From positions 32,001 to 96,000 of the IMG/VR virus record IMGVR_UViG_3300017698_000036: a DNA stretch of 64,000 nucleotides; one strand, 5' to 3'. The stretch's first letter is position 1, and each line of letters starts with the position of its first letter. A program made the position numbers and the translations under genes. This stretch comes from a virus. A model generated the notes under the pieces. That model was not told where the DNA came from and searched no databases. It saw nothing but the letters and a program-made list of their open reading frames with translations. Below, one piece after another: positions 3,984 to 53,240 of this stretch.

Positions 3984-5207
3984 GTGACCTTTTTTAAATT
4001 TGATGATACAAATATTATAAGAAGTACTTTAAAAACTCATCCGGATAATAGTTTTTTTATCTATCTCGGTAAGACATACTATAATAATAACTCTTTGGAG
4101 CCTGGTACATATGGTAACGTAATCAATCATTATGATGTAGATGGGTCTGACGATAGAAGTGAGTCATTGTATGAATACAATGTTGACAGAAATGCAGCTG
4201 CCCACAATCCTCCAACGGTGGAGACTGTGATATATCCCTACATAACCAAAAGTTCTGACGGTAACAGTATACGTGGGGTATCTACTATAGGTTATGATTT
4301 CGGAGATGACATGATAGGATCTTACCCTTTACTGTCTAATATAAGTCAGGATTTCTATGTACCATCTACGGACGCGACATATGATACCGTAAGTGCATAC
4401 GACCCTGCAGGTACAGAAAACTATGACTCCAAACGCAGAAGAGTTAAGAGTTTGAGGAATGTACTCAATTATTATAAAAGGTTTAATCCACTGTATGCAT
4501 ATGATTACGATGACAAGTATATAAGGCTCATAAGTGTTCCAGAGGTATTTTATGGGTCCAATATCAAAAAAGGTAGTGTTGAGTTGAATATATATTACGA
4601 CGGTGTTGTTGTTGGTACTCTGACAGACACAAACGCCGACGGAATACTCTATCAGTCGAATGGTCAAGTTAGTACTGAGGATGGGGACGTTGCGGGTCTG
4701 GTACTGTATTCTGAGGGCGTAATAGCTTTGACGGGAGACTGGAGTGTTACCACCTCCACAGACAAGTACAGGGCCGATAGAAACGACGCCGCATTAACTA
4801 CGTTTAAGTGGTTTAATTTCGGAGTTGAGGATTCTACCGTAACCAATACCATGTTCGATATAAAGTTCCAGGGTTCTCTTGATATAAATGTGTTGCAAAT
4901 GTTGGCCCCCGTAGATGGTAAGGATATCAACTTTTCTAATAATCCAACATATACAGATAAGGTCAATACTAGTAGATCTTATGTAAAGTCCGACTACGAG
5001 TTTGTAGAAGAGGGCAATTTGCAAATTAAGAATACTGTTAAGTCCGAATATGACAACATAGAAGAAGAGTTCGGACCTCAGGTGTTTGTAAATAAGATTG
5101 GTGTATATGATGAGAATAAAAGATTGATTGGCGTTGCAGAACTGGCCAAGCCCGTTAAAGTCAATCCTCAAAGAAAGCTTCTTTTTAAAATCAAAGTAGA
5201 TTATTAA
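3984..5207 (+). CDS. Putative baseplate/tail-associated structural protein, paralog of 2397..3791 (GTG start)
   Basis: C-terminal INFSNNPTY...VNKIGVYDENKRLIGVAELAKPVK...KIKVDY aligns by eye with the previous ORF. Confidence 0.55.
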   Translation: MTFFKFDDTNIIRSTLKTHPDNSFFIYLGKTYYNNNSLEPGTYGNVINHYDVDGSDDRSESLYEYNVDRNAAAHNPPTVETVIYPYITKSSDGNSIRGVSTIGYDFGDDMIGSYPLLSNISQDFYVPSTDATYDTVSAYDPAGTENYDSKRRRVKSLRNVLNYYKRFNPLYAYDYDDKYIRLISVPEVFYGSNIKKGSVELNIYYDGVVVGTLTDTNADGILYQSNGQVSTEDGDVAGLVLYSEGVIALTGDWSVTTSTDKYRADRNDAALTTFKWFNFGVEDSTVTNTMFDIKFQGSLDINVLQMLAPVDGKDINFSNNPTYTDKVNTSRSYVKSDYEFVEEGNLQIKNTVKSEYDNIEEEFGPQVFVNKIGVYDENKRLIGVAELAKPVKVNPQRKLLFKIKVDY

Positions 5208-5224: not shown

Positions 5225-5824
5225 ATGAGTGCAATACTTGGGTTAGATATCAGTACTAGTTGTGTAGGTATAGCTATTTTAGATGACTATACGGGAGATT
5301 TATTGTCTACCAAACATATAGAGTTGAATAAAAAGGTAAAGAAGGTGCCGGAGTATAAGGATTTGTGGGACAAGGCGGATAAGATGTACGATGTTTTAAA
5401 GGAGATATCTGAAAATGAAAACATCAGTATGGTGTATATTGAAGCTCCAGCAAAGGGTGGTTTTGGTGGTAAAACTAATGCCAACACCATTACCAACTTG
5501 ATACAGTTCAACAGTATGATCAGTTGGATGGTTCGTAGGTTATTTAATCACAAACCAGAGTATATTAATGTAAGATCTGCCAGGAAGATATGTGGTATTG
5601 GAGGTCTCAAAGGTACCCCCAAGGAGAACAAGACAAAGGTTTGTGAGTTTTTTATTGACGAGTATCCACAGTTTGTGGTAGAGTATACTAGATATGGTAA
5701 TATAAAGACTCAATGTTTGGATGAGAGTGATGCCATCTGTATTGCAAAGGCTGGATATATAGGTAAAATTAAAATAGTGAAAAATAAACGAAAAAAAGGA
5801 CAAATAAGTCATTTCTTCTCTTGA
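5225..5824 (+). CDS. RuvC-like Holliday junction resolvase
   Basis: RNase H-fold motifs ILGLDISTSCVG, VYIEAP and DESDAICIA. Confidence 0.85.
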   Translation: MSAILGLDISTSCVGIAILDDYTGDLLSTKHIELNKKVKKVPEYKDLWDKADKMYDVLKEISENENISMVYIEAPAKGGFGGKTNANTITNLIQFNSMISWMVRRLFNHKPEYINVRSARKICGIGGLKGTPKENKTKVCEFFIDEYPQFVVEYTRYGNIKTQCLDESDAICIAKAGYIGKIKIVKNKRKKGQISHFFS

Positions 5825-5849
5825 CACGAGACCGGTTTTACACTATAAT
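5821..5849 (+). promoter_or_regulatory. Consensus sigma70 promoter upstream of primase
   Basis: TTGACA (5821-5826), 17 nt, TATAAT (5844-5849). Confidence 0.85.
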
Positions 5850-5899: not shown

Positions 5900-6910
5900 A
5901 TGTTGTCTACAGAATACATAGAACAAAAGAAGGTAATAATAGGGGATATATTGGGAGACCATATTAGACATGGTGACGAACATATGTACTATTGTCCTAA
6001 TTCTGGTTGTAACCATCATAAAAAGAAGTTATCTATAAATTTTAAAAAGAACTCCTTTAAGTGTTGGATCTGTGGGTATAGGGGGAATAGTCTATATAGA
6101 TTGGTATCTTTCTTTGGTTCTGAGTCTCAAAAAAACCGTTGGGCAGAATACGATTCAATTGGTGATTTTGTGTCTGATTATAAGGATATAAAAAATCTCA
6201 TAGTCAACACCATTGATAAGATCAAAAAGACGGAATTGTATATCCCATCTGTGGACAAGACAGTTGTAAGACAGTTCCCAGGTAAGACATGTATCTCCCT
6301 AGCCAATTCAAGTAATATGGTTGTATCTGCTGCAGCCAAGAATTATCTATATGAACGTGGTTTAAGTCGATATGATATCCTAAAGTGGCAGATAGGTTTC
6401 TGTTTAATGGGCAAATACCAGTATAGAATAGTGGTACCGTCCTATAACGTAAATGGTAATATGAATTATTTCATAACCAGGACCTATCTTCCATTCGGAG
6501 AGTACAGATATTGGAATCCCAAAGCCAACAAGGATGATATTATTTTTAATGAATATTGGGTTGATTGGAGTAAGGATGTGGTGTTGGTAGAGGGTGTATT
6601 CGACGCGATGAAGGTGGAGTCAAACGCGGTACCCATTCTAGGATCTTCAATAACTGAAAGGTCCTTAATATTCAAAAGAATAGTAGACAATGGAAGTACT
6701 GTAGTGTTGGCTCTCGATGCCGATGCAAAGAAGAAGTCAGAGAAGATATATAATCTGTTGACTAGATACGGGATAGAGGTCTACAGGATGGATATGTCCG
6801 GATATGAGGACGTAGGACAAATGCCTAAGGATGTTGTTAGAGTCAGGTTGGATAGTGTAAAAGAAGACAATTCTTTTTCTTATCTTAGAAGTATGATAGA
6901 GGGAATATAG
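5900..6910 (+). CDS. DNA primase (Zn-finger + TOPRIM)
   Basis: CPNSGC..HH...CWICG zinc-binding domain; VLVEGVFDA and LALDAD TOPRIM motifs. Confidence 0.9.
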   Translation: MLSTEYIEQKKVIIGDILGDHIRHGDEHMYYCPNSGCNHHKKKLSINFKKNSFKCWICGYRGNSLYRLVSFFGSESQKNRWAEYDSIGDFVSDYKDIKNLIVNTIDKIKKTELYIPSVDKTVVRQFPGKTCISLANSSNMVVSAAAKNYLYERGLSRYDILKWQIGFCLMGKYQYRIVVPSYNVNGNMNYFITRTYLPFGEYRYWNPKANKDDIIFNEYWVDWSKDVVLVEGVFDAMKVESNAVPILGSSITERSLIFKRIVDNGSTVVLALDADAKKKSEKIYNLLTRYGIEVYRMDMSGYEDVGQMPKDVVRVRLDSVKEDNSFSYLRSMIEGI

Positions 6911-6911
6911 T

Positions 6912-9900
6912 ATGAAAATAGCGCATGTATCCGATACACATATACATAACTTACGATACCATCACGAATTCAGAGAAGTGTTTGAGGAGCTGTTTCAGAC
7001 TTTAAGGATGGAGAACGTGGATTATATCGTGCATACAGGTGATATAGTACACGGTAAAACAGTCATCAGTCCGGAATTGGTACGTTTAACTGGTTATTTT
7101 TTAAATGAACTAGGTAAGATAGCCCCGCTGTATGTCTTATTGGGCAATCATGACGGCTTGGTTAAGAATAAGAGCAGGGATAACGCTATCTCTTCTATTG
7201 TTTCAAATCTAGATAATAACAGTATATATGTATTCGACGGATCGGAGACGGTTGAGGTGGGTGATAATCTGACACTTACATCTTTTTCCATATTCGAGTC
7301 TAAGGATAATTGGATATTGAATCCAGAGAATAATGATAGAGTTAATATTGCATTATATCATGGGTCTGTGGGTAGAGAGTTGGACGGAAATCTAATGTAT
7401 GACAACGGACACGTAATGTCTTCGGACGATGTGTTAAGTATAGATACATTCAGTGAGTATGATTATACAATGCTGGGACATATTCACACATGTCAAGAAT
7501 TGAATGAAGATGGTACCATAGCTTATGCCGGCTCCACTGTACAGACCAATTTCGGAGAATCTCAGGAAAAGGGTTTCTATATATGGAATATTGACAGTGA
7601 TACTGAGTTTAGTAAAGAATTTATAGCATTGAACAATCCACATCCGTTCGTTACGTTAGATGTTGATGTAAAGAAGCCAACGTTCGTAAAGAATTTAAAG
7701 GCTGGGAAGTATAATTTACCTGAGGGTTGCAGACTTAGACTTGTTATAAAGAATGACGATGTTGGATATCGTGATGTAGAGGATATGTTCCGTGCGGTAA
7801 AACGAGAGATGAAGGTACACTCCACTCAGTGGATTCGAAAGCGAGTATCAAAGGTAAATACCAGTAAGGATAGTAACAGTAAGTCGTTATCTATCAGTCT
7901 GGATATGGAGACCCAAAATAGTCTTATAAAGGATAATTTACAGAATAGATTGAATATGAAGGATGATCAGTTGATAGCTGATATCGTTAAACTGAATCAG
8001 GACTATTTTAATGATGAAGAACGACGGGAAGATACAGAGTTAAACCGTAACTCTGTGTGGGAACTAAAGTCGATGGCGTGGAATAACCTATTCAGCTATG
8101 GCGAGAATAATGAATTCGATTTTGCAAAATATGATGATGGTGAAGTGGTTGGTATATTTGGATCTAACAGGTCTGGTAAGTCCAGTATTATAGACACTCT
8201 TCTTTTTGGTCTTTTTGGTAAGACGTCTAAGAAGGTTGGCCCCAATTCGAATATTATTAATAAACGTAGAAATGGTGGTGATGTAGTAGTAGAACTGGAA
8301 ATAGACGGTGTTACATATATCGTAGACAGAAGGTTGAAGCGTGCCATCAATAAGTATAATAAGGACGGATCCTTAAAGATTAAGGATCCTAAAAATCCCA
8401 GAGCTAACTTATCCAACTCTTCAGTCGAGTTCTATACCGTGGATAATAACGGAGTTATGGATACTAATCTGATAGATACCACTAGATTCAGTTCAGATCA
8501 TGTAATACAAAGTCGTATTGGTGATCTGGATGATTTTACACTTGGTTCACTCTCAACTCAGTTTAACTCTCTACAGTTTGTTGATAATACCAAGTCTGAA
8601 CGTAGAGATATCTTAAAACGTGTACTTAATTTGGATGTATTGGATGATAGGTATGAACGAGCACTTTCTGAGTTTAACTATATAAAAAAGAAATTAAAAC
8701 GAGAGTCCAAGGGTGGTTATACTAAGTTGATCAAAAAGGCCAAGTCGAATATAGAAGTATCAACGGCCAAGTTGGAGGACGAAAAAACACGTCTTGTTAA
8801 TATTAAAGAAGAGATTTCACAACTTAGAGATATGATAAAGACTCAAGAGTATGTCGTTATTGACTTTGAGAGGAATGGTGTTGAGGATATAGATATAGAG
8901 TCCGAGAAGCACGAGTTTAATAAGTTTAAATCTTACCTAAAAAGTACTATGGACGAGATAGTGGCTCTGGAGAGTTCTATAGTTGAGAGTAAAGATAGGA
9001 TCGAGAGGGGTGACGACTTGTTATCCACCTTCGATCGAGAGGAGTATGAGGGGAGAATTTCGGAAATAGAAAATATGGAAACTGATATCTCCGAAAAAGA
9101 GAGTAGTATTGAGATCCTATTGGCCGACATTAAACGTGACAACACTCAGTTAGAGACTGGAGCGGATGTTCCATGTAGGGGTACTGATTATTTTTATAAT
9201 TGTAACTATATACATGAGGCCGTGGAGATAATGAAGGGCCTCGACGAAAAGAAAGATAACAGGGAGAGGTTACAGGAAGATATTAAGACACTCAGAGAGG
9301 ACCTAGAGGGGAGATTGGGAACGAGAGATGAGTATAATAAATTTATAAAGGTATCGGATGTAATAAAGACAGAGAGACAGAAACTGCAGCTACTAAAAAG
9401 TAATCTAGAAAAGAAGATCTTATTTAAGACCGACGTTGAGCGTAAATTAAAACAGTGCGAAGAAAACATGACCAGTTATAATAACTCTAAGGTCAAGATA
9501 GACAATTATCAAAACACCAAAAACACCTTGGAGAAAATCAAACAAGATCTTATACGTCGTGAAAGAGAGAGCCAGGATGTTAATGATGATATTATATCGG
9601 ACTCTAAAGAGTTGGGTGTATTAGAGAACGTGCCCACGGAATTGGAGGGTAAGTTGCAGGAGAAGATTAACCTGGAGTATAGGTATGATCTATATGAGGC
9701 GTACACCAAAACTATAGGTGGTAAGACGGGTATATCTTTTGATATCCTGAAACAGTATATTCCGGTTATTAATAGAGAGATAGAGTCGGTGTTGAAGGGT
9801 ATCGTGGGTTTTATAGTGTATTTTCAAGTGTCGGACAGTGGTAGTATAGAAATTAGAATAGCTGATTCCCACGGAGACACTCCTATAGAGACGGGATCCG

Positions 9901-10169
9901 GAATGGAAAAACAGATGGCCTCCATCGCGATTCGGTTGGCGATTGTTAATATAACTTCTGTACCACACTCGAATGTGTTTTTACTCGATGAACCAATGGG
10001 AGCGTTGGATGATAATGCATTACAGGATTTTGTTAAGATACTGGAGGTTTTAAAACATAAATTTGATACGGTATTTTTGATAACACATAACATTTTACTT
10101 AAAGACGTGGTGGATAGAGTTATTGATGTTGAGAGAGATGAGGATGATATTAGTATCATTAGGGAGTAG
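6912..10169 (+). CDS. Fused SbcD/Mre11 nuclease - SbcC/Rad50 ATPase (T4 gp47+gp46-like)
   Basis: Metallophosphoesterase motifs DTH, GD, GNHD and GHIH; Walker A GSNRSGKS; coiled coil with central Cys pair; signature GSGMEKQ; Walker B/D-loop LLDEPMGALD. Confidence 0.9.
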   Translation: MKIAHVSDTHIHNLRYHHEFREVFEELFQTLRMENVDYIVHTGDIVHGKTVISPELVRLTGYFLNELGKIAPLYVLLGNHDGLVKNKSRDNAISSIVSNLDNNSIYVFDGSETVEVGDNLTLTSFSIFESKDNWILNPENNDRVNIALYHGSVGRELDGNLMYDNGHVMSSDDVLSIDTFSEYDYTMLGHIHTCQELNEDGTIAYAGSTVQTNFGESQEKGFYIWNIDSDTEFSKEFIALNNPHPFVTLDVDVKKPTFVKNLKAGKYNLPEGCRLRLVIKNDDVGYRDVEDMFRAVKREMKVHSTQWIRKRVSKVNTSKDSNSKSLSISLDMETQNSLIKDNLQNRLNMKDDQLIADIVKLNQDYFNDEERREDTELNRNSVWELKSMAWNNLFSYGENNEFDFAKYDDGEVVGIFGSNRSGKSSIIDTLLFGLFGKTSKKVGPNSNIINKRRNGGDVVVELEIDGVTYIVDRRLKRAINKYNKDGSLKIKDPKNPRANLSNSSVEFYTVDNNGVMDTNLIDTTRFSSDHVIQSRIGDLDDFTLGSLSTQFNSLQFVDNTKSERRDILKRVLNLDVLDDRYERALSEFNYIKKKLKRESKGGYTKLIKKAKSNIEVSTAKLEDEKTRLVNIKEEISQLRDMIKTQEYVVIDFERNGVEDIDIESEKHEFNKFKSYLKSTMDEIVALESSIVESKDRIERGDDLLSTFDREEYEGRISEIENMETDISEKESSIEILLADIKRDNTQLETGADVPCRGTDYFYNCNYIHEAVEIMKGLDEKKDNRERLQEDIKTLREDLEGRLGTRDEYNKFIKVSDVIKTERQKLQLLKSNLEKKILFKTDVERKLKQCEENMTSYNNSKVKIDNYQNTKNTLEKIKQDLIRRERESQDVNDDIISDSKELGVLENVPTELEGKLQEKINLEYRYDLYEAYTKTIGGKTGISFDILKQYIPVINREIESVLKGIVGFIVYFQVSDSGSIEIRIADSHGDTPIETGSGMEKQMASIAIRLAIVNITSVPHSNVFLLDEPMGALDDNALQDFVKILEVLKHKFDTVFLITHNILLKDVVDRVIDVERDEDDISIIRE

Positions 10170-10175
10170 TCTGTT

Positions 10176-10805
10176 GTGGAAATAAAGTTTAGAAGACCGG
10201 CATTGTCTTGTGTTTGTAGCTACATAGAAAGAGGTAGTGGTGTACGTTTATATGATTGGCAGAGAGGTTATGTCGATATGTTGGTTGATGAACGTACTAT
10301 ATTTGTTTTAAAACCTAGACAGGTGGGCATGTCGTATATAAATTTATGGTATGTAGACTATCTCGTTAGTAATTTCGAAAATGTTAATGTATGTATGGGA
10401 TATCTGTCTAAAAACAGGGCCACTATGGAACAGAGTCTTATTCGCTCACGTGGTAACGGATATCCCGACTTTTTATGTAAACAGAATAGTAGAGTAAGAG
10501 TCGATGCTGCATCGCGCGCACTTCGTCACTATTCACGTGATCACACGAATTATCTGTTTCTAGATGAGTATATGTTCATACAGAGTATGCCGGATATAAG
10601 AGCATTGATGACTAAGTACGATTATATATTTGCCAGTTCTACTCCAAATGGGAGTTCTACATACTACAAGGTGTTCAAGTTGCCCAATGATGATTATGTC
10701 ATCGATATAGGTGGGGTTATATATAAAGTTTATGATACAGATGAGTTGGCTCAGTTTTCCAATTCACGTCTAAATGTTAATTCGCACACATTTAGTCTAT
10801 TTTAA
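10176..10805 (+). CDS. Stand-alone terminase-large-subunit-like ATPase domain (GTG start)
   Basis: LYDWQ, LKPRQVGMS, LFLDEYMFI and ASSTPNG mirror LYDYQ, LKGRQLGIS, LIIDEAAFI and VLSTPFG of TerL at 15137; no nuclease domain. Confidence 0.7.
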   Translation: MEIKFRRPALSCVCSYIERGSGVRLYDWQRGYVDMLVDERTIFVLKPRQVGMSYINLWYVDYLVSNFENVNVCMGYLSKNRATMEQSLIRSRGNGYPDFLCKQNSRVRVDAASRALRHYSRDHTNYLFLDEYMFIQSMPDIRALMTKYDYIFASSTPNGSSTYYKVFKLPNDDYVIDIGGVIYKVYDTDELAQFSNSRLNVNSHTFSLF

Positions 10806-10844
10806 AAGCTATTACTATTTCAAAAAAAGGAGGATTAAGTAGAC

Positions 10845-11660
10845 ATGATTTATAAAAAAGGAGTACAGAGACCTATGGTTATGGGAATTCAGGAGGTTAT
10901 TAGAGCCTCTATTGATGGATTCTTTGGTTCTATAACAGAGCAAAAGGTGAAGGACTACCAAGCAGATAATGGTTTTGAACAAACTGGTGAAGTGGATCAG
11001 GATTTGTTGGACCACATGTTTAAAGATGGAATGCAGGTAACCTATAGGGTACTTGAGGTTATCGCGTGTTTTGAGATCGGGTTCAAGAGACAAGCCTGGG
11101 GCGCAACAAGTGTTGTACCTGGTGATGGAGCCGGTACGAACTATGGTGTTATGCAGGTCAATAAGTACGGTTCGATGCAACTGATGAAGAAGTATTACAT
11201 GCCAGCTGGAGAGGACTTTACAGATTGGATTGGTTCTATCAATGGTGCAAAGGCTCAATACCGATACTTCCTGGATCGTATATGGTCAGGAGCTACGGCA
11301 TTTGCTTATAAGGTTGGGGATACGTCTCCACGGGCAGTAGCCTTGTTCTGTGACGCGATTGTTCAAGGGGGTCACACTATGCCGTCAAAGGCTCCTAAAA
11401 CTTGGAGAGATTGGCAACTGGATGGAAATTATCTTGAGTTGGTAAAGCACAACTATGAAGAGGATACCGTACGTAGGGCATTTATTAAGTCTGTCATGAG
11501 CTATAGCCCTCCTGGAAGGGCCTTTGCCGAGATACATCCTAGATCGGGTAATTTGAAGTTTTTAGATGATCAACTTAGTAGACGTAGAACAGTTATCACT
11601 GGTCAAGGAATTGTACATGGTGATAGATACGATATGGACCTGTTTGGTTTGTTTGATTAG
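10845..11660 (+). CDS. Putative endolysin (peptidoglycan-binding domain + lysozyme-fold glycosidase)
   Basis: FFGSITEQKVKDYQADNGFEQTGEVD is PG_binding_1-like; FE...GDGAGTNYGVMQ resembles the lysozyme/chitosanase-fold catalytic signature. Confidence 0.7.
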   Translation: MIYKKGVQRPMVMGIQEVIRASIDGFFGSITEQKVKDYQADNGFEQTGEVDQDLLDHMFKDGMQVTYRVLEVIACFEIGFKRQAWGATSVVPGDGAGTNYGVMQVNKYGSMQLMKKYYMPAGEDFTDWIGSINGAKAQYRYFLDRIWSGATAFAYKVGDTSPRAVALFCDAIVQGGHTMPSKAPKTWRDWQLDGNYLELVKHNYEEDTVRRAFIKSVMSYSPPGRAFAEIHPRSGNLKFLDDQLSRRRTVITGQGIVHGDRYDMDLFGLFD

Positions 11661-11672
11661 GGGAGTCTTATA

Positions 11673-12005
11673 ATGACGCTTATCGACAGTATTAAGGGAA
11701 AGTACGATAGGGGTAAGTCTGCGTTTGATGTGTGGGAGGAGAGTGGACTTCTCGAAGGTCTACTTCTGGAGCATCAAAAGATAGTGGTCGAGTTTTTAGA
11801 TTTATGGTATATTGAGATATTGAAGATGAGAGACCCTACAACTGACAGCAGTTTTTACACTAAAGATGAGGTTGAGAGTTTTGCGTATATAGGGTTTCCT
11901 ATCGTAAGAAGAATTCTACAACCACTTTTAGAAAAATATGAATTGGTTTTGAGGACGGATGATGATGGTAAACATTCACTATTTTCGAAAACGTATAAGG
12001 AGTAA
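11673..12005 (+). CDS. Mini-protein homologous to major capsid N-terminus, with C-terminal DDGKHSLFS tag
   Basis: WEESGLLEGL and VESFAYIGFPIVRRIL match MCP WTKTGLLKGI and VEGFASVAFPLVRRIF; GGGAG SD. Confidence 0.75.
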   Translation: MTLIDSIKGKYDRGKSAFDVWEESGLLEGLLLEHQKIVVEFLDLWYIEILKMRDPTTDSSFYTKDEVESFAYIGFPIVRRILQPLLEKYELVLRTDDDGKHSLFSKTYKE

Positions 12006-12011
12006 AGATAA

Positions 12012-12329
12012 ATGAAGAAGGATATATTAAGTCAGCTTAAAGGAAGACAGTGTGAAATTACAACAATACCTACTGATGAGGAAAAACTCCGATTAGTAGA
12101 CAAGTGGACATTCGCCGGTCTTCTCGACGGGTTAGAGATTTCCGATAAAACTAAGTTGGCTATGATGTTAGAACTGACATCAATGTCACTTATTGAGTGT
12201 ATTAAGATAGAGGAGGAGATAGGTAGTGAGGTAGATATTGATCAATCGGCCGCCATAGTTTTTCCTATGATTGTGCGTACCTTCCACAGTATGAACGACT
12301 ATGGTCTTAAAATAGAACATAAGGAGTAA
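12012..12329 (+). CDS. Second mini-protein homologous to major capsid N-terminus
   Basis: KWTFAGLLDGL...KLAMMLE...SLIE...AAIVFPMIVRTF matches MCP KWTKTGLLKGI...NLAVLLE...SLITE...ASVAFPLVRRIF; AAGGAG SD. Confidence 0.75.
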   Translation: MKKDILSQLKGRQCEITTIPTDEEKLRLVDKWTFAGLLDGLEISDKTKLAMMLELTSMSLIECIKIEEEIGSEVDIDQSAAIVFPMIVRTFHSMNDYGLKIEHKE

Positions 12330-12335
12330 GTATAA

Positions 12336-13178
12336 ATGAAAAAAGAAGATAAAAAAGATGTACTGGTTGATGAGTGTACAAACGGTCTGCCCATCACCAT
12401 CGGGGTACCTGATGAGAGTGGAGATCTTAAGGCTGTAACCAATCCCAAACTAAAGGAGACGATTGAGTTGGGTAAAAAGATGCAGGCCGATGAAAGAAGT
12501 CATCAGAGTGAGGAAGACCGTGCACGCGGTGAGGCTATTGTAACCAACATTATAGATACCGTCTCTACAGAACTCTTGGGAGAAGAACCTGAAGAAAAAT
12601 GGCCTCCCAAGATGGATACTGATACGACGGTTAAGGGTGATCCACCCACTACAGAAGAGGCCAAGATTAATAAGGAGTTTGCAATCAAGAGAATTTCAGG
12701 TGAGTTGGATCTATCTGACGAACCTCCAGAGTGTAAATGTGGGGGAGAATGTACGTCACACAACACTCTGGCTGAGGCGGTGGGTATGAAACCTGGTGAT
12801 TTCGATAAGTTGGATCACTATGATGAGCTGGTCAAGGAGAATGGGAAGTTGAAGGAAGAAAAAACTAGATCCGATTTGTGGCAGGCCGATAAAAGAGGGT
12901 TTATGGATAGAGCCCTTGGCAAATTCGCGAGTAGAAAACTGTTAGCTTTTGCAGTTACCACCATAGCCTTCTTCATGGGTCTACTAGTGTCACAGTACTA
13001 TATGGCCATCGTTATGTGTTATATTGGTTCACAAACTGCAGTAGACATCTTTAATCGCGTTAAGCTACCAAGTGTAACCGACGCAGCCTGGGAATCACTG
13101 TCTCGTCGTAATAACACTGTTCCACAAAAACAGTCAGTCGAAAGTAAACCGACGTTAAAAAATAAAACATTTAACTGA
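12336..13178 (+). CDS. Putative holin-like membrane protein with long acidic N-terminal region
   Basis: Two short hydrophobic helices after SRKLL near the C-terminus; lies between the endolysin and spanin-like genes. Confidence 0.45.
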   Translation: MKKEDKKDVLVDECTNGLPITIGVPDESGDLKAVTNPKLKETIELGKKMQADERSHQSEEDRARGEAIVTNIIDTVSTELLGEEPEEKWPPKMDTDTTVKGDPPTTEEAKINKEFAIKRISGELDLSDEPPECKCGGECTSHNTLAEAVGMKPGDFDKLDHYDELVKENGKLKEEKTRSDLWQADKRGFMDRALGKFASRKLLAFAVTTIAFFMGLLVSQYYMAIVMCYIGSQTAVDIFNRVKLPSVTDAAWESLSRRNNTVPQKQSVESKPTLKNKTFN

Positions 13179-13283
13179 TTGATTTACTTATAGAAACTCC
13201 CACCTATCCCACCTCTCGAAATTTAAGTCTCACACAAAACTCACAAATCAAATAATTACATACATAACAAAGGGGAATATGAC

Positions 13284-24110: not shown

Positions 24111-25898
24111 ATGAAAAATAGAAAAAGTGGACAACTTCTTATTGAACACATGGGTAGAATGAAACCTATCCATAAGGGTAATTTAGAATCCAAAAACCTA
24201 CAAGAGAGTATCAAGGTAGAGAACTTTTTAACAGAGTCAGAAATGAAGGGCGTAAGGGAGAATGGAGATCTCTATTTGGTAGGTATCATACAGGCTGCAG
24301 ACACCCTTAACGGTAACGGTAGGATATATCCCAGACCCATTCTAGAAAAAGAAGTCGCCAGATTTAAAAAGCAGGTTATAGGGGAGAACGGTGGATACGG
24401 TCATAATCAACATCCAGATTGTATAATTGAGACTGACAAACCAGAAATTCTTACAAAATATGGTTGGAAGAGAATTTCAGAAGTTAATGTTGGTGATTCC
24501 GTATATACATACAATACAAAGTCCGACAGTATGGAGTTGCAGAATACTACCAAGGTTGTGAATGAGTTTTATTCTGGGGATGTATATAACATCAAGGGTA
24601 AGAATATAGATCTAACAGTAACCCCTAATCATAGGTTTTATATGAAGGATAGAAAGGGTGAGGGTTATTTCGTAACGGCTGAAGATTTATATGATAATCA
24701 GACACGTCATGGTCATTCTAGTATACCAAAATTGGCCAACTGGGAAGGCGAACATCCAGAGTATTATGAAATACCGGCTCTAGATGATTCTTTTTACAAA
24801 CATAATCATCATATGTTCAAGCCGGAGTATAGAAGTCCACTGAAAATAAAGACGTCTATATTTACCAAGTTTTTAGGTATATGGTTGGCGGAAGGTCATG
24901 TTGGTAAAGATCATACAAGTAACAATAGTGTGACCATTACTCAAAATGAAGGAACCACGGCCAACAGGATAAGGGATCTGTTTAAAGAGTTGCCTTTTAG
25001 TGTGACGGAAAGGGTTAGGATGAATGAGTTTGGTAGTAAAAACATTCAATTTACATTCAATTCCCCACAATTGGCCAACTACTTAAGAGGTTTGGGGGAC
25101 GTGTATAGTAAGTATATACCTCATGATGTTAAACAATTGTCAACCAGTCTGTTAAGTGATTTATATGAATGGTACCATATGGGGGACGGAAGAACGGCAA
25201 ACGGTCAAAAGAACATATTCAGTATATCAGAAAAGATGATGGATGATTTTCAAGAAGTCCAACTTAAGATTCAAAAGACTGGTAATATAGTTAAAAGAAA
25301 GCCGGTTGATAGATATATAGGAAATAGGTTGATAGAGGCCAAAAATTCTAGATCATTACATATATTATATCATAATGTAACCAAGGGTATGTATTTACGT
25401 CCCGGAGTGGTTACCATAAGAAAGAAACGGTATGAGGGCAATGTTAGCTGTGTATCTGTTCCCAATTCCACCTTTTATTCCAGAGTAAATGGAAAGGTAG
25501 TGTTGACGGGAAATTCAGAAGATATCGACATAAGAGAAATATCTCACAGGATGGTTGATGTATGGTGGGACGGTAACAATGTGATGGGTAAGATTCAGGT
25601 ACTACATAACACCCCTGGCCAGGATCTAAGAAACCTAATTACTATGGATGGTATGAATCCCGGTATCTCTAGCAGGGCCGTCGGTTCTATTCATGAAGAT
25701 TATAATGGTAATACGATCGTAGAGGAAGATCTTAATATTATATGTTGGGATATGGTGGTTACCCCCTCTACTCCATCAGCATATATGATGCAAGAAACAT
25801 ATAACTCTAAGATGTATGAGTCCACAAATACAAAAACCGACGATCGCACCAAAGACGTGAGAGTTAAGTCACTTTTAGAGGACATAGTACGAGGTTAA
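24111..25898 (+). CDS. Prohead core protease (T4 gp21-like) interrupted by an intein
   Basis: IIQAADTLNGNGRIYPRPILEKEV, HPD, ISH and GISSRAVGS gp21 motifs. Confidence 0.92.
   Translation: MKNRKSGQLLIEHMGRMKPIHKGNLESKNLQESIKVENFLTESEMKGVRENGDLYLVGIIQAADTLNGNGRIYPRPILEKEVARFKKQVIGENGGYGHNQHPDCIIETDKPEILTKYGWKRISEVNVGDSVYTYNTKSDSMELQNTTKVVNEFYSGDVYNIKGKNIDLTVTPNHRFYMKDRKGEGYFVTAEDLYDNQTRHGHSSIPKLANWEGEHPEYYEIPALDDSFYKHNHHMFKPEYRSPLKIKTSIFTKFLGIWLAEGHVGKDHTSNNSVTITQNEGTTANRIRDLFKELPFSVTERVRMNEFGSKNIQFTFNSPQLANYLRGLGDVYSKYIPHDVKQLSTSLLSDLYEWYHMGDGRTANGQKNIFSISEKMMDDFQEVQLKIQKTGNIVKRKPVDRYIGNRLIEAKNSRSLHILYHNVTKGMYLRPGVVTIRKKRYEGNVSCVSVPNSTFYSRVNGKVVLTGNSEDIDIREISHRMVDVWWDGNNVMGKIQVLHNTPGQDLRNLITMDGMNPGISSRAVGSIHEDYNGNTIVEEDLNIICWDMVVTPSTPSAYMMQETYNSKMYESTNTKTDDRTKDVRVKSLLEDIVRG
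24420..25514 (+). mobile_element. Full-length intein with LAGLIDADG homing endonuclease (365 aa)
   Basis: Begins Cys (HPD|CIIET), ends VVLTGN|SEDI with +1 Ser; FLGIWLAEG and WYHMGDG LAGLIDADG motifs. Confidence 0.9.
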
Positions 25899-26889: not shown

Positions 26890-28071
26890 ATGATGAGTCT
26901 TATAGATAAAGCCATAGTCGACGCGAAAAACATTAAAGAGCTGGCTAATAAAAGTGCTGAGTTGAAGTTGTTGGAAAAGTTAGAACCGGTAAAAAAGACT
27001 ATCGCTCAAAAACTATTAGAACAGGAAGATTTTGGTTTAGACGATGAAGAGATGGAAGAGCTCCCTATGGACGATATCATGGGTGATATCGAAGGAGAGA
27101 TGGGTGGTCTAAATCCCGAAGAAGAAGGCTTTGTTGGAGAGATTCCTCAAGCTGCAACAGACGGAGAGAAGCTTTGTACCTGTGCTGGTGAAGATGAAAC
27201 CGGCAAGGGTGAAGAGGTTACTGTTACGTTGGATAAACTAGTTGACTTGGCTGAACAGGAACTTAAGAAATCCCTAAAAGCCGAAAAGGATCTTTTAGAG
27301 ACTATGACTGGTGGAGAAGTAGATACCGATGAAGAGGTAGACGTAGATCCAGTAGACGAGACCCTAAAGGAAGAGGATGAGGTGGTCTCATTGACGTTGG
27401 GTAAACTCACAGAGATCGTTTCAGCTATCACCGAAGAGCTCGTCTTCAATTACAAGTTTCAACCCACTGGCCATATAGGACGACCCAATGATATAGAGGT
27501 TGGAGAGTTTGAAGAACTTCAAAAAGTAATGGCCGCACTAGAAGAGTCTGTTGAAAGATTGAATGGTGAAAAATCAGGTTTGGTAGAAAAATATAATTCT
27601 TTAAAAGAGAAATATAATAAACTACATACTAAGGCTACTGAGAAACTTAAAGAGGCCACAGAGGAGCTTAAAGAATCCCGCGGCACAATCAAAAGAGAGA
27701 CACGTGAAGTGGAAGAGTTAAAACTGGAAAATGTTAAACTTACCGCAATCAATAAAGTGTTAACTAATAAAAAATTAAACGAAAAACAGAAAGGTAACAT
27801 AGTTAGTGTAATAAAAGACTCTATGACCGTTAGAGAGGTCAAGATGAACTTTAATACGGCAATGAAGCTCGTAGAAAATGTGGACGCAAAACGTAACTTA
27901 TCTAATAGACGTGGTCGAGTAAGTAAAGCCACTCTGAGTGAAATTAAAGCAACCATGAGCAAGAAAGGAAATATTGTTGAAAGTTCGAACACTAAAAAAG
28001 AGTCTTCTAATAGTATTTTAGGTCCTAATGAAAGAACATTACGTATGGCCGGAATACAGTTGGACGATTAA
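26890..28071 (+). CDS. Prohead core/scaffold protein (gp22-like)
   Basis: Acidic, long coiled coil, many [LI]xE sites; immediately upstream of MCP. Confidence 0.8.
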   Translation: MMSLIDKAIVDAKNIKELANKSAELKLLEKLEPVKKTIAQKLLEQEDFGLDDEEMEELPMDDIMGDIEGEMGGLNPEEEGFVGEIPQAATDGEKLCTCAGEDETGKGEEVTVTLDKLVDLAEQELKKSLKAEKDLLETMTGGEVDTDEEVDVDPVDETLKEEDEVVSLTLGKLTEIVSAITEELVFNYKFQPTGHIGRPNDIEVGEFEELQKVMAALEESVERLNGEKSGLVEKYNSLKEKYNKLHTKATEKLKEATEELKESRGTIKRETREVEELKLENVKLTAINKVLTNKKLNEKQKGNIVSVIKDSMTVREVKMNFNTAMKLVENVDAKRNLSNRRGRVSKATLSEIKATMSKKGNIVESSNTKKESSNSILGPNERTLRMAGIQLDD

Positions 28072-28119: not shown

Positions 28120-29898
28120 ATGTCTATTGTAAAACAACTTATGGAAAACAGAGTATCTCCGGTCAAAAGAAATGATCGTGAAACTGCTCGTAAAATGAAA
28201 AAATGGACCAAGACTGGTCTTTTAAAAGGTATTAAGGATGAGCAAGCTGTAAAGAATCTCGCTGTTCTCTTGGAGAATCAAGCCGAGTCTCTTATTACAG
28301 AAGCTTCCACAATGTCTGATGGTGCTGTTGAAGGTTTTGCCTCTGTAGCATTCCCCCTTGTACGAAGAATCTTTGGAGCTCTCATTGCTGACAGTATCGT
28401 ATCTGTTCAACCTATGAGCCTCCCCGCAGGTCTGGTATTCTTCCTTGACTTTACTTATACTGATACTAAACTTGGATATACCGCAGGTAAATCCGTGTAT
28501 GGTGGTGAAGTAGTTGGTGCAGGAATCGCCGGTGGTGTTGACCTCGATAATGATAATGGTTTCTATAACCTTAATACTGGTTACAGTTCTCCTGAATGGG
28601 TAGCTGAAAACGTAGCCGATATCGTATCCGCAGGTACTCTTGCTGACGATCAATTCCAAAATGTAGACTTCACCAACGGTGGAGCCGGCCCTTTCACAAG
28701 AGCCCAAATTATCACCAACGCTGATCAAGCTGACGTAGATTACGACGAAGACATTCTCACTGATGACGGTACTTGGTACTACAACAAATATGCTATTAGA
28801 CTTGCTACCACTGAGTGGGATAGAGTACAGTTTGATAATCTCGTATCTATGTTGTTTGCAGATCCTACCGCAGGAGCAAGTCTCTTTGGTGCAACAGCTG
28901 AAGTAGTTAGACGACTTAGTGACGTTACTAGTACTACTAACAGAACTATTAAGTTCTTAGTAAGAGCTACTAACATTGCTCATGTACCTATCTCTACAGC
29001 CAGTACAAAAGCTATTAACTGGGAATTCACAGTTAACGACAAGTATAAAGAAGGTACAAGTCTCGGTACAATCCTCGGTGAAGATTGGCACTTAGAGGGT
29101 CCAGATACCAGAACATCTGGTGCTGGATATGAAGATATGGCAGAGCTTGACATTAAGATCAACTCCCTGCCTATCGTAGCTCAAACCAAAAAACTTAAAG
29201 CTAAGTGGACCCCTGAATTGGGACAAGACCTCAACGCTTATCATAATGTAGATGCAGAAGTAGAACTTACTGGTATCCTCTCCGAACATATCGCTCTTGA
29301 GATCGATAGAGAGATTATCCTTGACTTAGTTAAGGGTGCAACAGCAGGTACTTATTTCTGGAACCGTAATCCTGGTAACTTTGTTAACAAGACTACTGGT
29401 GTTCTCATTACTGGCGCAACTGCTCCTGACTTTACCGGTAACGTATCTGAATGGTACGAAACTTTGCTTGAAACCATTAATGACCTCTCTGCAGTTATCT
29501 ACAGAAAGACTCTTAAGGGTGGGGCTAACTTCCTCGTATGTGGTCCCGAAGTATGTTCCTTGCTTGAAATGACCAACGGATTCCGCGCACAACCCATGGG
29601 TCCAGATGTAGCTACTACTTCTGCTGGTGTTGTTAAAGCTGGTTCTATTACTAAAAAATGGGATATCTATGTTGATGTATACTTCCCCAGAAACCTTATC
29701 CTTGTAGGAAGAAAAGGAAATTCTTTCTTAGAATCAGGTTATGTGTATTCTCCATATGTACCTCTTCAAGTCACCCCCACAATCTTTGGTACCGAGGATA
29801 TGACACCTAGGAAAGGTGTGATGACTCGATATGCTAAGAAAATGGTCAAGCCTGACATGTACGGTCTCGTTCGTGTAATCAACCTTATCCAAAAGTAA
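28120..29898 (+). CDS. Major capsid protein (T4 gp23-like)
   Basis: FPLVRRIF...SVQPMSLPAGLVFFLD, KKLKAKWTPELGQDL...EIDREI, YSPYVPL and PRKGVMTRY; probable maturation site LITE/AS. Confidence 0.95.
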   Translation: MSIVKQLMENRVSPVKRNDRETARKMKKWTKTGLLKGIKDEQAVKNLAVLLENQAESLITEASTMSDGAVEGFASVAFPLVRRIFGALIADSIVSVQPMSLPAGLVFFLDFTYTDTKLGYTAGKSVYGGEVVGAGIAGGVDLDNDNGFYNLNTGYSSPEWVAENVADIVSAGTLADDQFQNVDFTNGGAGPFTRAQIITNADQADVDYDEDILTDDGTWYYNKYAIRLATTEWDRVQFDNLVSMLFADPTAGASLFGATAEVVRRLSDVTSTTNRTIKFLVRATNIAHVPISTASTKAINWEFTVNDKYKEGTSLGTILGEDWHLEGPDTRTSGAGYEDMAELDIKINSLPIVAQTKKLKAKWTPELGQDLNAYHNVDAEVELTGILSEHIALEIDREIILDLVKGATAGTYFWNRNPGNFVNKTTGVLITGATAPDFTGNVSEWYETLLETINDLSAVIYRKTLKGGANFLVCGPEVCSLLEMTNGFRAQPMGPDVATTSAGVVKAGSITKKWDIYVDVYFPRNLILVGRKGNSFLESGYVYSPYVPLQVTPTIFGTEDMTPRKGVMTRYAKKMVKPDMYGLVRVINLIQK

Positions 29899-30080: not shown

Positions 30081-31787
30081 ATGCCGGCAAAGATAAAAAA
30101 AGAAGATTATGATATATTGTGTGAAGGTTTTAAGGGTGGTAACAAGATAGAGGTACTGTCTGGGTTCGATGAATATAAAAATCTAAAAACCAAACTTCGT
30201 TGTAGGTGCACCGTTTGTGGAAAAGAGCAGTTAAAAACCTTAGGCAAGTTGAAGATGGGTCAAGGTTGTGGTGAGAGGGTGTGTAAGGGAAAGAAGGTAG
30301 GGCTAAAAGGAAGACTGTCCAAAGGGAAGTATGACGAACGTTGTAGACAACATCGTGAACAGTTTGACATGTTAACACTTACGGAGTATAAAGATTTTAA
30401 ATCTGCAACGTCCAAAATACGATTAAGGTGTGAGGTGTGTGGGGAAGAACAGGATAAGAGATTCGCAGACTTAACCAGATACGGATGTAATAGTAAAGCC
30501 TGTCGAAATAAAGACAAAATGGGCCCACTACGTTCAGAGGGGAAGTTCGATGAGTGGAAAAATCAGCTTGAACTGAAGGAGGCCCTACGTATTCAGACTC
30601 CCTTTTCTGACGTCACCAAGACAACAGATAGGGTGGAGGTGTATTGTGGTGAATGTAAAAAGACTTCCATCAAGACAATAAAGTTATTACGTAGTGGGGC
30701 GGGCTGTATGTACTGTGCTAATATACGTAGGGGTAATCATGGAAGAAAAACTAAGTCTGAATTTATGGAAGAAGTTCGTAAGGCACAGAGAGATTTGGGT
30801 ATAAGTATTTTAACGAAATATAGTGAATATACCACCAAGGCCTCCAACGTTAATGTTGAGTGTATTAAGTGTGGTAGAGTTCATAAAAAGAGTATGGACA
30901 GTATATGTAGAGGACACGGATGTCGTTATTGTTCAACTTCAGGGCCCAGTAAGGGTGAAACAGAAATATATGACTTGGTACATGGTTTGTTTCCAGACAC
31001 AGTCCAGGGTGATCGCACTGTATTAAGTGGTAAGGAGATCGACGTTTATGTACCAAGTAAAAACATCGGTATAGAATATAACGGTCTGTATTGGCACAGT
31101 GAAGAATACAGGGACAAGAAATACCATATTGATAAGTGGAAAAAGACTTCAGATAATAACATACACTTGATTCAAATATTCGAGGACCAATGGCGAGACA
31201 GACGAGATATAGTGGAATCTATTATAAAGAATAAGTTAGGTTTAACCGAAAATAGTATATATGCTAGAAAAACTAAAGTTAGATTATTGGAATCGAAAGA
31301 AGAACGATCTTTGGCCAAAATATTTATGAATGATAACCATCTCGACGGTCACACTAACTTCCACTTCGCGATTGGTCTATTCTTAAACGACGAAATGGTA
31401 CAGTGTATCACCGTCAGGAAGCCGTTTACGTCAAGGTATAGTGGTTATTATGAGATTGCACGTCTGGCCAGTAGGTTGGATACGGTGGTGATAGGTGGGT
31501 TTAGTAGGTTAATGAAATATGTTAAGGAGAGGGCTATAGACGAACAATCTAATGGTCTTTTGACGTACGCCGATTTAAAGTTAGGTACTGGTAAAGTATA
31601 TTTAGACTATGGCTTTGAGTATATTGGTGATACACTTGGTGAGTATTGGTATACCGATAGTTTCGTGAGATACAATAGGTTTAAATACAGGGCCACAAAG
31701 GAACTTACAGAAAAACAAGTTGCAGAAAAGAATAATGTAAAGAAAATATATGGCGTAGGCTCCTCAAGATATATTTTAAACTTCTAA
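30081..31787 (+). CDS. Free-standing homing-endonuclease-like protein (four Zn-ribbon repeats + PD-(D/E)xK nuclease + C-terminal GNAT-like domain)
   Basis: Repeated CxxC...GC units; SKGE...EIDVYVPSKNIGIEYNGLYWHS; YEIARLAS...GGFSRLMKY...TYADL. Confidence 0.75.
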   Translation: MPAKIKKEDYDILCEGFKGGNKIEVLSGFDEYKNLKTKLRCRCTVCGKEQLKTLGKLKMGQGCGERVCKGKKVGLKGRLSKGKYDERCRQHREQFDMLTLTEYKDFKSATSKIRLRCEVCGEEQDKRFADLTRYGCNSKACRNKDKMGPLRSEGKFDEWKNQLELKEALRIQTPFSDVTKTTDRVEVYCGECKKTSIKTIKLLRSGAGCMYCANIRRGNHGRKTKSEFMEEVRKAQRDLGISILTKYSEYTTKASNVNVECIKCGRVHKKSMDSICRGHGCRYCSTSGPSKGETEIYDLVHGLFPDTVQGDRTVLSGKEIDVYVPSKNIGIEYNGLYWHSEEYRDKKYHIDKWKKTSDNNIHLIQIFEDQWRDRRDIVESIIKNKLGLTENSIYARKTKVRLLESKEERSLAKIFMNDNHLDGHTNFHFAIGLFLNDEMVQCITVRKPFTSRYSGYYEIARLASRLDTVVIGGFSRLMKYVKERAIDEQSNGLLTYADLKLGTGKVYLDYGFEYIGDTLGEYWYTDSFVRYNRFKYRATKELTEKQVAEKNNVKKIYGVGSSRYILNF

Positions 31788-52593: not shown

Positions 52594-52833
52594 ATGTCTA
52601 AATTCAATCATAAATCCGTAACCGATAGAGACTTCGAACCCAGAAAAGGTGAAGAGTTTGACCCTATGAATGCGATCGATCTTGCGATGGAATCTTATGA
52701 CGACCAGAGAGAGAGTGAAAACGCCTGTAGTGCCAAGAATCTCAACAGACATGCGAAAAAACTTCGTAACGTATTCACTGATGAGTATGGTATGATTTGT
52801 GATCCAACAGACGGAAAGTGGGTAGAATGTTAG
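52594..52833 (+). CDS. Small hypothetical protein
   Basis: 79 aa; AAGGT SD; downstream of the internal promoter. Confidence 0.55.
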   Translation: MSKFNHKSVTDRDFEPRKGEEFDPMNAIDLAMESYDDQRESENACSAKNLNRHAKKLRNVFTDEYGMICDPTDGKWVEC

Positions 52834-53240
52834 TAACAGCCAAACATATATTCGATGAACCCAAGATCTATCCATGGGATGTATTGGATTGGGCCGAGGA
52901 AGGACAGGTCGAATATGAAGTTGACTTGTATCTCAGAAATACCGATATAACCCACCTACCTGATAACATGACGGTCAATGGTTATTTAAATCTCTACAGT
53001 ACCAATATAACTCAACTACCTAAAGATCTACATGTTGGTGGCAACTTGTATCTCAATGATACCAACATAACTCAACTACCTAAAGATCTACATGTTGGAT
53101 ATCATTTAGTTCTCTACGGTACCAATATGGCTCAATTACCTGAAGGTCTGTATGTTGGTGGTAATTTACATCTTGGGCACGATGACAATATTAAGATTCC
53201 TGATTCTGTGGTCATAAAAGGTACAATTTGGCGTACTTGA
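52827..53240 (+). CDS. Leucine-rich-repeat-like protein (20-aa repeats)
   Basis: LxLxxTNITQLPxDLxVGGx repeated about 4 times; ATG 52827 overlaps the previous gene. Confidence 0.75.
   Translation: MLVTAKHIFDEPKIYPWDVLDWAEEGQVEYEVDLYLRNTDITHLPDNMTVNGYLNLYSTNITQLPKDLHVGGNLYLNDTNITQLPKDLHVGYHLVLYGTNMAQLPEGLYVGGNLHLGHDDNIKIPDSVVIKGTIWRT
53001..53158 (+). repeat. 60-bp-period coding repeats
   Basis: ACCAAyATAACTCAACTACCTAAAGATCTACATGTTGG at 53001 and 53061; diverged third copy at 53121. Confidence 0.85.

Follow-up and report, generated by a model that had tools for sequence, protein, structure and literature searches.

Tandem small genes of a distant T4-superfamily phage encode stand-alone paralogues of the N-terminal inner module of the major capsid protein

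In phage T4, the N-terminal part of gp23, the major capsid protein, consisting of a 65-residue propeptide and an N-arm that extends to about Leu-106, is cut by the gp21 protease. In the unexpanded T4 head, order in gp23 begins at Leu-106, which points towards the interior; gp23 before Leu-106 is thought to be inside the immature shell, touching the scaffolding core (probably gp22), the head-length mutations A66D, A94V and G97S map to this region, and Met-98 contacts the portal whisker (Fang et al. 2022, PMC9546572). The N-terminus of gp23 targets fusion proteins to GroEL (PMC3012670). The 29-residue Gol region of gp23, which has a 20-residue core and is the most conserved part of gp23, activates Lit, and the first ~100 residues of gp23 bind EF-Tu more stably (PMC3014915).

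Several other described proteins offer partial parallels. The T4 vertex protein gp24 is a capsid-protein paralogue encoded in the same genome, and is itself a shell subunit with the complete HK97 fold. IPI-III, the internal proteins of T4, and other head proteins with a capsid-targeting sequence (CTS) are small, hypervariable, accessory and tied to the prohead interior; the CTS is a peptide of about ten residues ending in L/I-x-E, and IPI* is a counter-defence protein. T4 gp61.1 (54 aa) is a small ORF among the replication genes, adjoining the primase gene 61. In HK97 gp5 and T5 pb8, the delta domain and the N-terminal scaffolding domain, respectively, are helical assembly domains of an HK97-fold capsid protein that act in cis and are removed by the prohead protease. 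A description of stand-alone capsid N-terminal modules was not found in the literature searched.

Here we analysed a stretch of 64,000 nucleotides, referred to as the window (positions 32001-96000 of a 138.7-kb virus record; 38% G+C), from a record estimated to be about 70% complete. Judged by its genes, the phage belongs to the T4 superfamily as a distant member, since it encodes a Gp23 major capsid protein (MCP), a prohead protease of the gp21 type and recognisable portal and TerL proteins. Among cultured phages, Microcystis phage Mel-JY01 is the nearest, with an MCP identity of 35%. The head genes of the window include the following:

24111..25898, + strand: prohead protease (595 aa), with a gp21-type domain (phrog_207) at residues 470-592
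26890..28071, + strand: candidate gp22-like scaffold (393 aa), directly 5' of the MCP gene, named from composition and position only
28120..29898, + strand: MCP (592 aa), Pfam Gp23 at E = 5e-68
28120..28389, + strand: parental module (MCP residues 1-90); it contains the propeptide helices, a putative cleavage site L-I-T-E↓A and the helix with F-P-L-V-R-R

The candidate scaffold is rich in Glu, Lys and Leu, has a net charge of -27 and has no family match. The long N-terminal part of the 595-aa protease protein had no confident assignment, and a large HNH/homing-endonuclease-like gene (30081-31787; phrog_559, E = 8e-83) is immediately 3' of the MCP gene. At this level of completeness, the genome yielded no Cpn10-type co-chaperonin.

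Two short ORFs of the same strand, separated by a gap of 6 nt, encode the small proteins that are the subject of this work (hereafter the minis):

11673..12005, + strand: mini1 (P0002, 110 aa), which stands alone as a paralogue of the inner module at the MCP N-terminus and has a 25-residue tail, predicted to form a beta-hairpin
12012..12329, + strand: mini2 (P0003, 105 aa), a second, diverged tandem copy of the MCP inner module

The first-pass annotation had claimed that these two tandem ORFs reproduce an N-terminal stretch of the MCP, and this was confirmed by BLASTP, residue shuffles and a profile built from MCPs only. BLASTP aligned mini1 residues 21-86 with MCP residues 29-89 (33% identity over 66 residues, E = 2e-6) and mini2 residues 22-94 with MCP residues 19-88 (34% identity over 74 residues, E = 3e-9), the matched part of the MCP being residues ~19-89, while mini1 and mini2 matched each other with an E value of 0.002. 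The Smith-Waterman scores were 70 for mini1-MCP, 90 for mini2-MCP and 54 for mini1-mini2, against shuffled means of 31.6±4.4, 31.3±4.7 and 27.7±5.0, respectively. None of 1000 residue shuffles reached the observed score for any of the three pairs, so that the alignments beat the shuffled control that had been set beforehand. The mini-free profile, for which eleven full-length MCPs were cut to their first 220 residues, picked up mini1 and mini2 at E = 1e-10. When all ORFs of the genome were compared, the best non-self match of both mini1 and mini2 was the MCP, which was also the sole paralogue of either mini in the all-against-all comparison, and a six-frame scan with a mini1/mini2/MCP profile found exactly three copies in the genome and no more.

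The MCP-only profile also detected three proteins from other sequences, P0004, P0013 and P0015, with E values of 1e-10 to 1e-14 for the five members, and in all five the match ended at positions 83-93 of 217, a few residues past V-R-R-x-F. Comparison of the family profile with PDB sequences aligned it to T4 gp23 residues 5-44 and 84-133, with F-P-x-V-R-R falling on Gly-97 to Arg-101 and the end of the homology at about Leu-106/Ile-107 of T4. Since the homology ends where the ordered shell of T4 begins, the minis match the entire pre-shell inner module of the MCP (propeptide helices, cleavage loop and first mature helix) and nothing else. The minis are homologous to the T4 gp23 N-terminal region and share its W/G-L-L-x-G and V-R-R motifs, but they are separate genes without an HK97 fold behind the module. 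Lacking any shell-forming domain, the minis would be unable to polymerise and, with 105-110 residues and the pre-shell module only, could take no lattice position, unlike gp24. While the minis carry the N-terminal module of gp23-type MCPs (W-x3-G-L-L-x-G ... F-P-x-V-R-R), they lack the HK97 fold with its P, A and insertion domains (105-110 aa; four-helix prediction). They were therefore not classified as gp23-type MCPs (PF07068), as the profile match stops at 83-93 of 217 and neither PF07068 nor PHROG families matched.

The motifs W-x3-G-L-L-x-G and F-P-x-V/I-R/V-R quoted earlier were found in the minis, and the related proposal that conservation is focused in the motifs was borne out by an alignment of 55 sequences, in which W, G, G, A, P and R were invariant. 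On the other hand, E-N-Q (which also occurs in T4) and V-E-G-F, both near-invariant in the MCPs, were absent in all five minis, and so was the conserved I-A-x-D-x-x-x-V-Q-P-M continuation of the MCPs. By analogy with the L/I-x-E rule of T4, the putative maturation site of the MCP is L-I-T-E↓A; the aligned site reads L-I-E in mini2 and P0015, and no motif was present in mini1, P0004 or P0013. The first-pass annotation had also stated that both ORFs end soon after V-R-R and that they span the propeptide and the Gol-equivalent helix. The former holds for mini2, which runs 16 residues past R-R, but not for mini1, which runs 30 residues past it with a tail that is kept in its orthologue. The latter holds for the propeptide helices, the cleavage loop and the V-R-R helix, but the minis reach only from Ala-94 to about Ile-107 of T4, ~13 of the 29 Gol residues. 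With this coverage and with the I-A-x-D-x-x-x-V-Q-P-M continuation missing, the minis were rejected as full Gol equivalents.

An alignment of minis and MCP N-termini was used as input for AlphaFold2. The program predicted a compact domain for mini1 (pLDDT 86.7, pTM 0.79) with helices at residues 3-12, 17-24, 32-53 and 64-88 and a hairpin at residues 91-105, and the same four helices for mini2 (pLDDT 72). As modelled, the minis are free-standing, acidic domains of roughly four helices, and the prediction suggests that the inner module may fold autonomously. No match to the mini structure was found at E≤0.001 by Foldseek against PDB and BFVD, the wide VIA-align search gave generic helical matches only (best Z 5.5), and ESM Atlas gave no useful lead; thus, no solved or predicted viral structure in these searches resembled the predicted fold above background. 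In contrast to the HK97 delta and T5 pb8 domains, which act in cis, the mini module is a separate protein beside a separate candidate scaffold. T4 gp61.1 is, like the minis, a small ORF among replication genes and has the T-S-G-A-V found at gp23 residues 85-88 (the post-cleavage region), but not the helices or V-R-R; with an hhalign probability of 0.6% and no detectable similarity, it was rejected as a relative of the minis. The product of T4 gene 61.1 (L101, 4967-5131) starts with a CTS-like M-K-T-F-K-E-F-I-K-E.

Two large protein searches, one with HMMER that covered 1.84 billion representatives exhaustively, the other with a word-seeded profile against 5.8 billion clusters, added P0004, P0013 and P0015 as the only genuine members among the matches listed, which brings the family to at least five with mini1 and mini2. 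Almost all other short matches were truncated MCP gene calls that either ran into the V-Q-P-M shell or stopped at contig ends or frameshifts; P0007 (1003 aa) was a repeat artefact, and a word-based search with mini2 only returned mini2 alone. When the five members were compared by tblastn with 50,697 cultured-phage records, no mini was found and there were only weak matches to MCP N-termini. Scans of the five members against Pfam, PHROGs and PADLOC returned nothing, and no profile of a known defence or anti-defence family (PADLOC, Pfam) matched the minis.

P0004 (121 aa) is encoded on an 8.9-kb metagenomic contig (L018) that is gene-for-gene syntenic with the window, in the order SbcC, a terminase-ATPase-like gene, a PG-binding protein, P0004, a membrane protein, four small genes, TerL and portal. 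Identity to the counterparts in the window is 76% for the portal, 64% for the PG-binding protein and 59% for TerL. P0004 is only 31% identical to mini1, compared with 43-76% for the neighbouring genes, but aligns with mini1 from end to end, including the 25-residue non-MCP tail (D-G-x-x-S-L-F-S). Where the window has a tandem pair, L018 has one copy.

Outside these contigs the minis are sparse. They were missing in relatives with an MCP of ~50% identity, a complete 184-kb genome included, and in 80 more distant marine loci recovered via a portal scan, about 85 relatives in all; the flanking PG-binding protein and TerL, used as queries, retrieved no relative closer than L018. In a tree of the module, the branches of the minis were 5-10 substitutions per site, compared with 0.1-1 for MCP N-termini. 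Because these long branches are saturated, an origin of the minis from the resident MCP lineage and a single origin of all minis are not separable in the tree. By these comparisons the family is very rare and fast-evolving, and the rapid divergence and sporadic presence of the minis look like accessory, arms-race-like behaviour.

The duplications that gave rise to the minis are ancient, as judged from the codon-aligned genes: nucleotide identity between the minis and the MCP gene is 47-48%, identity at third positions is 32-33% and essentially random, and the similarity still seen by blastn is limited to 44 nt at the V-R-R motif. From the base composition, stops would make up ~7.5% of random codons, and the calculated chance of 105-110 open codons is ~2-3e-4 per ORF. 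Both mini1 and mini2 start no more than 4 codons after an upstream stop, their in-frame codon bias is +0.23 and +0.28 (in the annotated frame only), and each has a Shine-Dalgarno sequence:

11660..11665, + strand: Shine-Dalgarno GGGGAG, 7 nt 5' of the mini1 ATG
11997..12002, + strand: Shine-Dalgarno AAGGAG for mini2, overlapping the end of mini1

Since the frames are intact while the synonymous sites are saturated, a syntenic orthologue is present in L018 and the C-terminal homology boundary is common to five of five members, we consider mini1 and mini2 to be real, selected genes, in agreement with the selection suggested in the first-pass annotation. That annotation had set random-length pseudogene fragments against selection, and the five members instead share one homology end point. 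If the minis were partial copies of the 5' end of the MCP gene, decaying and without a function of their own, the missing family annotation, the sporadic distribution and the very long branches in the tree would be expected. We nevertheless hold this to be highly improbable, because both ORFs remained open at saturated synonymous sites, both have Shine-Dalgarno sites and in-frame codon bias, the positional orthologue P0004 has kept the extra tail, all five members end their homology at one boundary, the six MCP-invariant residues are retained, and the fold of mini1 is predicted with confidence.

The module is acidic in all five minis (net charge -3.4 to -8.1; -5.4 and -8.1 in the two of the window), whereas the N-terminus of the resident MCP has a net charge of +3.5, the most basic of 50 MCP N-termini with a mean of -1.4±1.6. 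In this respect, as in the loss of E-N-Q and the inconsistent cleavage motif, the minis differ from the gp23 region of T4, which is neutral or basic. The candidate scaffold and other head-core proteins have charges of -27 to -74. Because both the minis and the candidate scaffold are acidic, simple competition for scaffold binding is disfavoured, and the minis were marked down as simple competitors of this kind.

The charges would instead be complementary between the minis and the MCP itself, which brings in the possibility that the minis modulate head assembly. In one version, the acidic mini would pair with the basic propeptide of unassembled MCP and act in trans as a holdase or brake against premature polymerisation; in another, the mini would take scaffold or portal sites and so tune nucleation or head size, although repulsion from the acidic core proteins is expected for a scaffold competitor. 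If the minis have an assembly role, its most plausible form is that they pair with the N-terminus of the MCP and do not compete for the acidic scaffold. Such a role is in line with the T4 module, which is inside the immature shell with its probable gp22 contact, its length mutations and its portal-whisker contact, and with the retention of the whole module, including propeptide helices that are relevant only before maturation. However, the minis are dispensable in relatives with a 50%-identical MCP, they evolve far faster than the conserved MCP N-terminus that they would need to match, and E-N-Q and V-E-G-F, which are near-invariant in MCPs, have been lost in five of five. On balance we see head-assembly modulation as somewhat unlikely in absolute terms, and as nearly as likely as the host-directed mimicry discussed below.

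Two members of the family are longer than the others. P0013 (140 aa) has ~55 extra C-terminal residues, and P0015 (233 aa) has its module at residues 104-186 with ~100 extra residues on the N-terminal side and ~45 on the C-terminal side. Variable extra domains round a constant module could mean that the minis are capsid-targeted cargo, with the module directing a protein into the prohead core, the protease trimming it, and the remnant being packaged or injected like the T4 internal proteins. A gp21-type protease is encoded by the phage, L-I-E of mini2 and P0015 is at the position of the putative L-I-T-E↓A site of the MCP, and the T4 internal proteins are likewise hypervariable and counter host defences. 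But the site motif is missing in mini1, P0004 and P0013, mini1 and mini2 have almost nothing beyond the module, and an acidic module would meet an acidic core. Moreover, no L/I-x-E was found within the first 20 residues of mini1 or mini2 (of the two, only mini2 has an internal L-I-E), and with this N-terminal decapeptide absent the minis were rejected as CTS-type internal proteins. Thus, although small, hypervariable and accessory like the internal proteins, the minis are predicted to be a folded, MCP-derived domain of ~90 residues rather than the bearers of a short peptide, their packaging is hypothetical, and cargo is in our judgement a distinctly unlikely explanation.

P0013 is encoded in the accessory region of a contig (L019) from an unrelated phage, 2.6 kb from a homologue of the anti-Thoeris gene Tad3. 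This homologue of the type I Thoeris inhibitor (1276-1926, - strand; 46 bits against a cut-off of 27) is on the strand opposite P0013, and because of the opposite strand and the unrelated phage the link to Tad3 is weak. BspA-type LRR and DUF1281_C genes share the same accessory region.

To place the minis in their genetic context, we considered the surrounding genes and regulatory motifs. Both minis belong to a tight run of genes at 5900-13178 with gaps of ≤39 nt, in the order primase-like (5900), fused SbcD-SbcC (6912), terminase-ATPase-like (10176), PG-binding (10845), mini1, mini2 and a membrane protein (12336-13178). The first of these (5900-6910) is a weak Toprim/primase-like ORF 5' of the SbcD-SbcC fusion, in which SbcD (Metallophos) and SbcC (AAA_23/SMC) are joined in a single 1085-aa ORF (6912-10169). 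The run is framed by the following features, together with one gene within it:

5821..5849, + strand: perfect consensus sigma-70 promoter (TTGACA-17-TATAAT), with no other strong promoter-like site upstream of the run
10176..10805, + strand: stand-alone terminase-ATPase-like protein (209 aa), a truncated TerL paralogue two genes 5' of the minis
13190..13268, + strand: C-rich tract, a likely transcription-unit end, directly after 13178 and carrying ATCCCACC twice
13251-13258, + strand: octamer AATAATTA, a candidate late promoter following the C-rich tract

The other consensus sigma-70 sites are clustered in the presumed early region of the genome. A family of small paralogues, about ten in number (96-179 aa; identity 35-70%), is encoded in this region, at 52818-53240 and by nine further genes (genome 96.3-130.3 kb, mostly past the window); several of these genes are directly behind consensus sigma-70 promoters. 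The tract at 13190-13268 is the most C-rich and G-poor in the 64-kb window (C/G ratio 6, 99.98th percentile), is conserved at 4035-4100 of L018 with two ATCCCACC and the same gap, and may serve between two units as a terminator of the Rho-utilisation type or as a site where a regulator binds. Eight copies of the octamer AATAATTA are present in the window (1348, 3940, 13251, 18647, 21617, 31884, 35769 and 39008), a total no higher than in shuffles but conspicuous for its bias in strand and position, with all eight on the + strand and each just 5' of a gene start. In L018 the single exact AATAATTA, at 4101, is in the homologous intergenic gap behind two ATCCCACC. We consider AATAATTA a candidate late or middle promoter element; TATAAATA, the late promoter of T4, showed no enrichment. 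These motifs suggest a unit boundary and then a candidate late promoter downstream of 13178, which would put the minis in the earlier unit.

The position of the minis can be read in more than one way. They are 3 kb upstream of the TerL and portal genes and adjoin a membrane protein gene, which would also suit a modulator of head assembly. Since T4 has head-assembly helpers (gene 40 and gene 31) among its early or replication genes, of which gene 40 encodes a membrane head-initiation chaperone and is located among replication genes, the location of the minis is compatible with an assembly role. The terminase-ATPase-like protein encoded nearby (phrog_2, E = 1e-7) is 22% identical to the resident TerL and lacks the nuclease domain; its gene is kept at the same position in L018 with only 28% identity. 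TerL and the MCP are the only proteins with truncated paralogues in the genome, and these paralogues neighbour each other.

Because the minis have no shell fold, they could act only through binding. Rapid divergence, duplication and sporadic occurrence, together with the non-late context, the truncated-terminase neighbour and the Tad3 association, lead us to favour, tentatively, a mimic that faces the host, and we regard it as possible, though short of probable, that the minis are soluble mimics occupying a host recogniser of the nascent MCP N-terminus (of the EF-Tu/Lit type, GroEL or another sensor). In such a mechanism, the sigma-70-driven replication and recombination unit would probably yield the minis before the late burst of MCP, as soluble look-alikes of the newly made MCP N-terminus. 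The minis would then occupy a host protein that recognises this N-terminus; the counterpart region in T4 binds GroEL and, as the Gol-Lit trigger of abortive infection, EF-Tu, whose domains II/III are the target of the Gol peptide. A bound mimic without the rest of the MCP may blunt a Lit-like or other capsid-sensing defence, or may pre-condition the host factor. Against this, the timing is derived from promoter motifs only, the best-established role of the module is scaffold contact and head-length control, and the minis contain only about half of the Gol region. In addition, no precedent for a capsid-fragment decoy was found in the literature searched, PADLOC, Pfam and PHROG were all without a match, and the Tad3 neighbour is a weak association.

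The neighbouring truncated terminase ATPase may do likewise for sensors of terminase. The two phage proteins that the pattern-recognition immunity of bacteria senses most often are terminase (by Avs-type systems) and the capsid protein (by Lit-, CapRel- and CBASS-type systems). It is conceivable, if doubtful, that the capsid mimics and their neighbour, the truncated terminase ATPase, together serve as a pre-late 'decoy cassette' of soluble, non-assembling copies that bind sensors without activating them. If true, such self-mimicry would count as a new class of counter-defence.

Taken together, the minis are an undescribed small family and a new form of capsid-protein paralogy. In T4, the first ~100 residues of gp23 are a hub for scaffold, portal, head length, protease, GroEL and EF-Tu/Lit abortive infection. 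A natural free-standing module separates this hub from the shell-forming part, and would thus provide a handle on the true partners of the module and on its autonomy as a domain. Regardless of which partner the minis bind, they bear on whether phages employ duplicates of structural proteins to handle host sensors or to time assembly.
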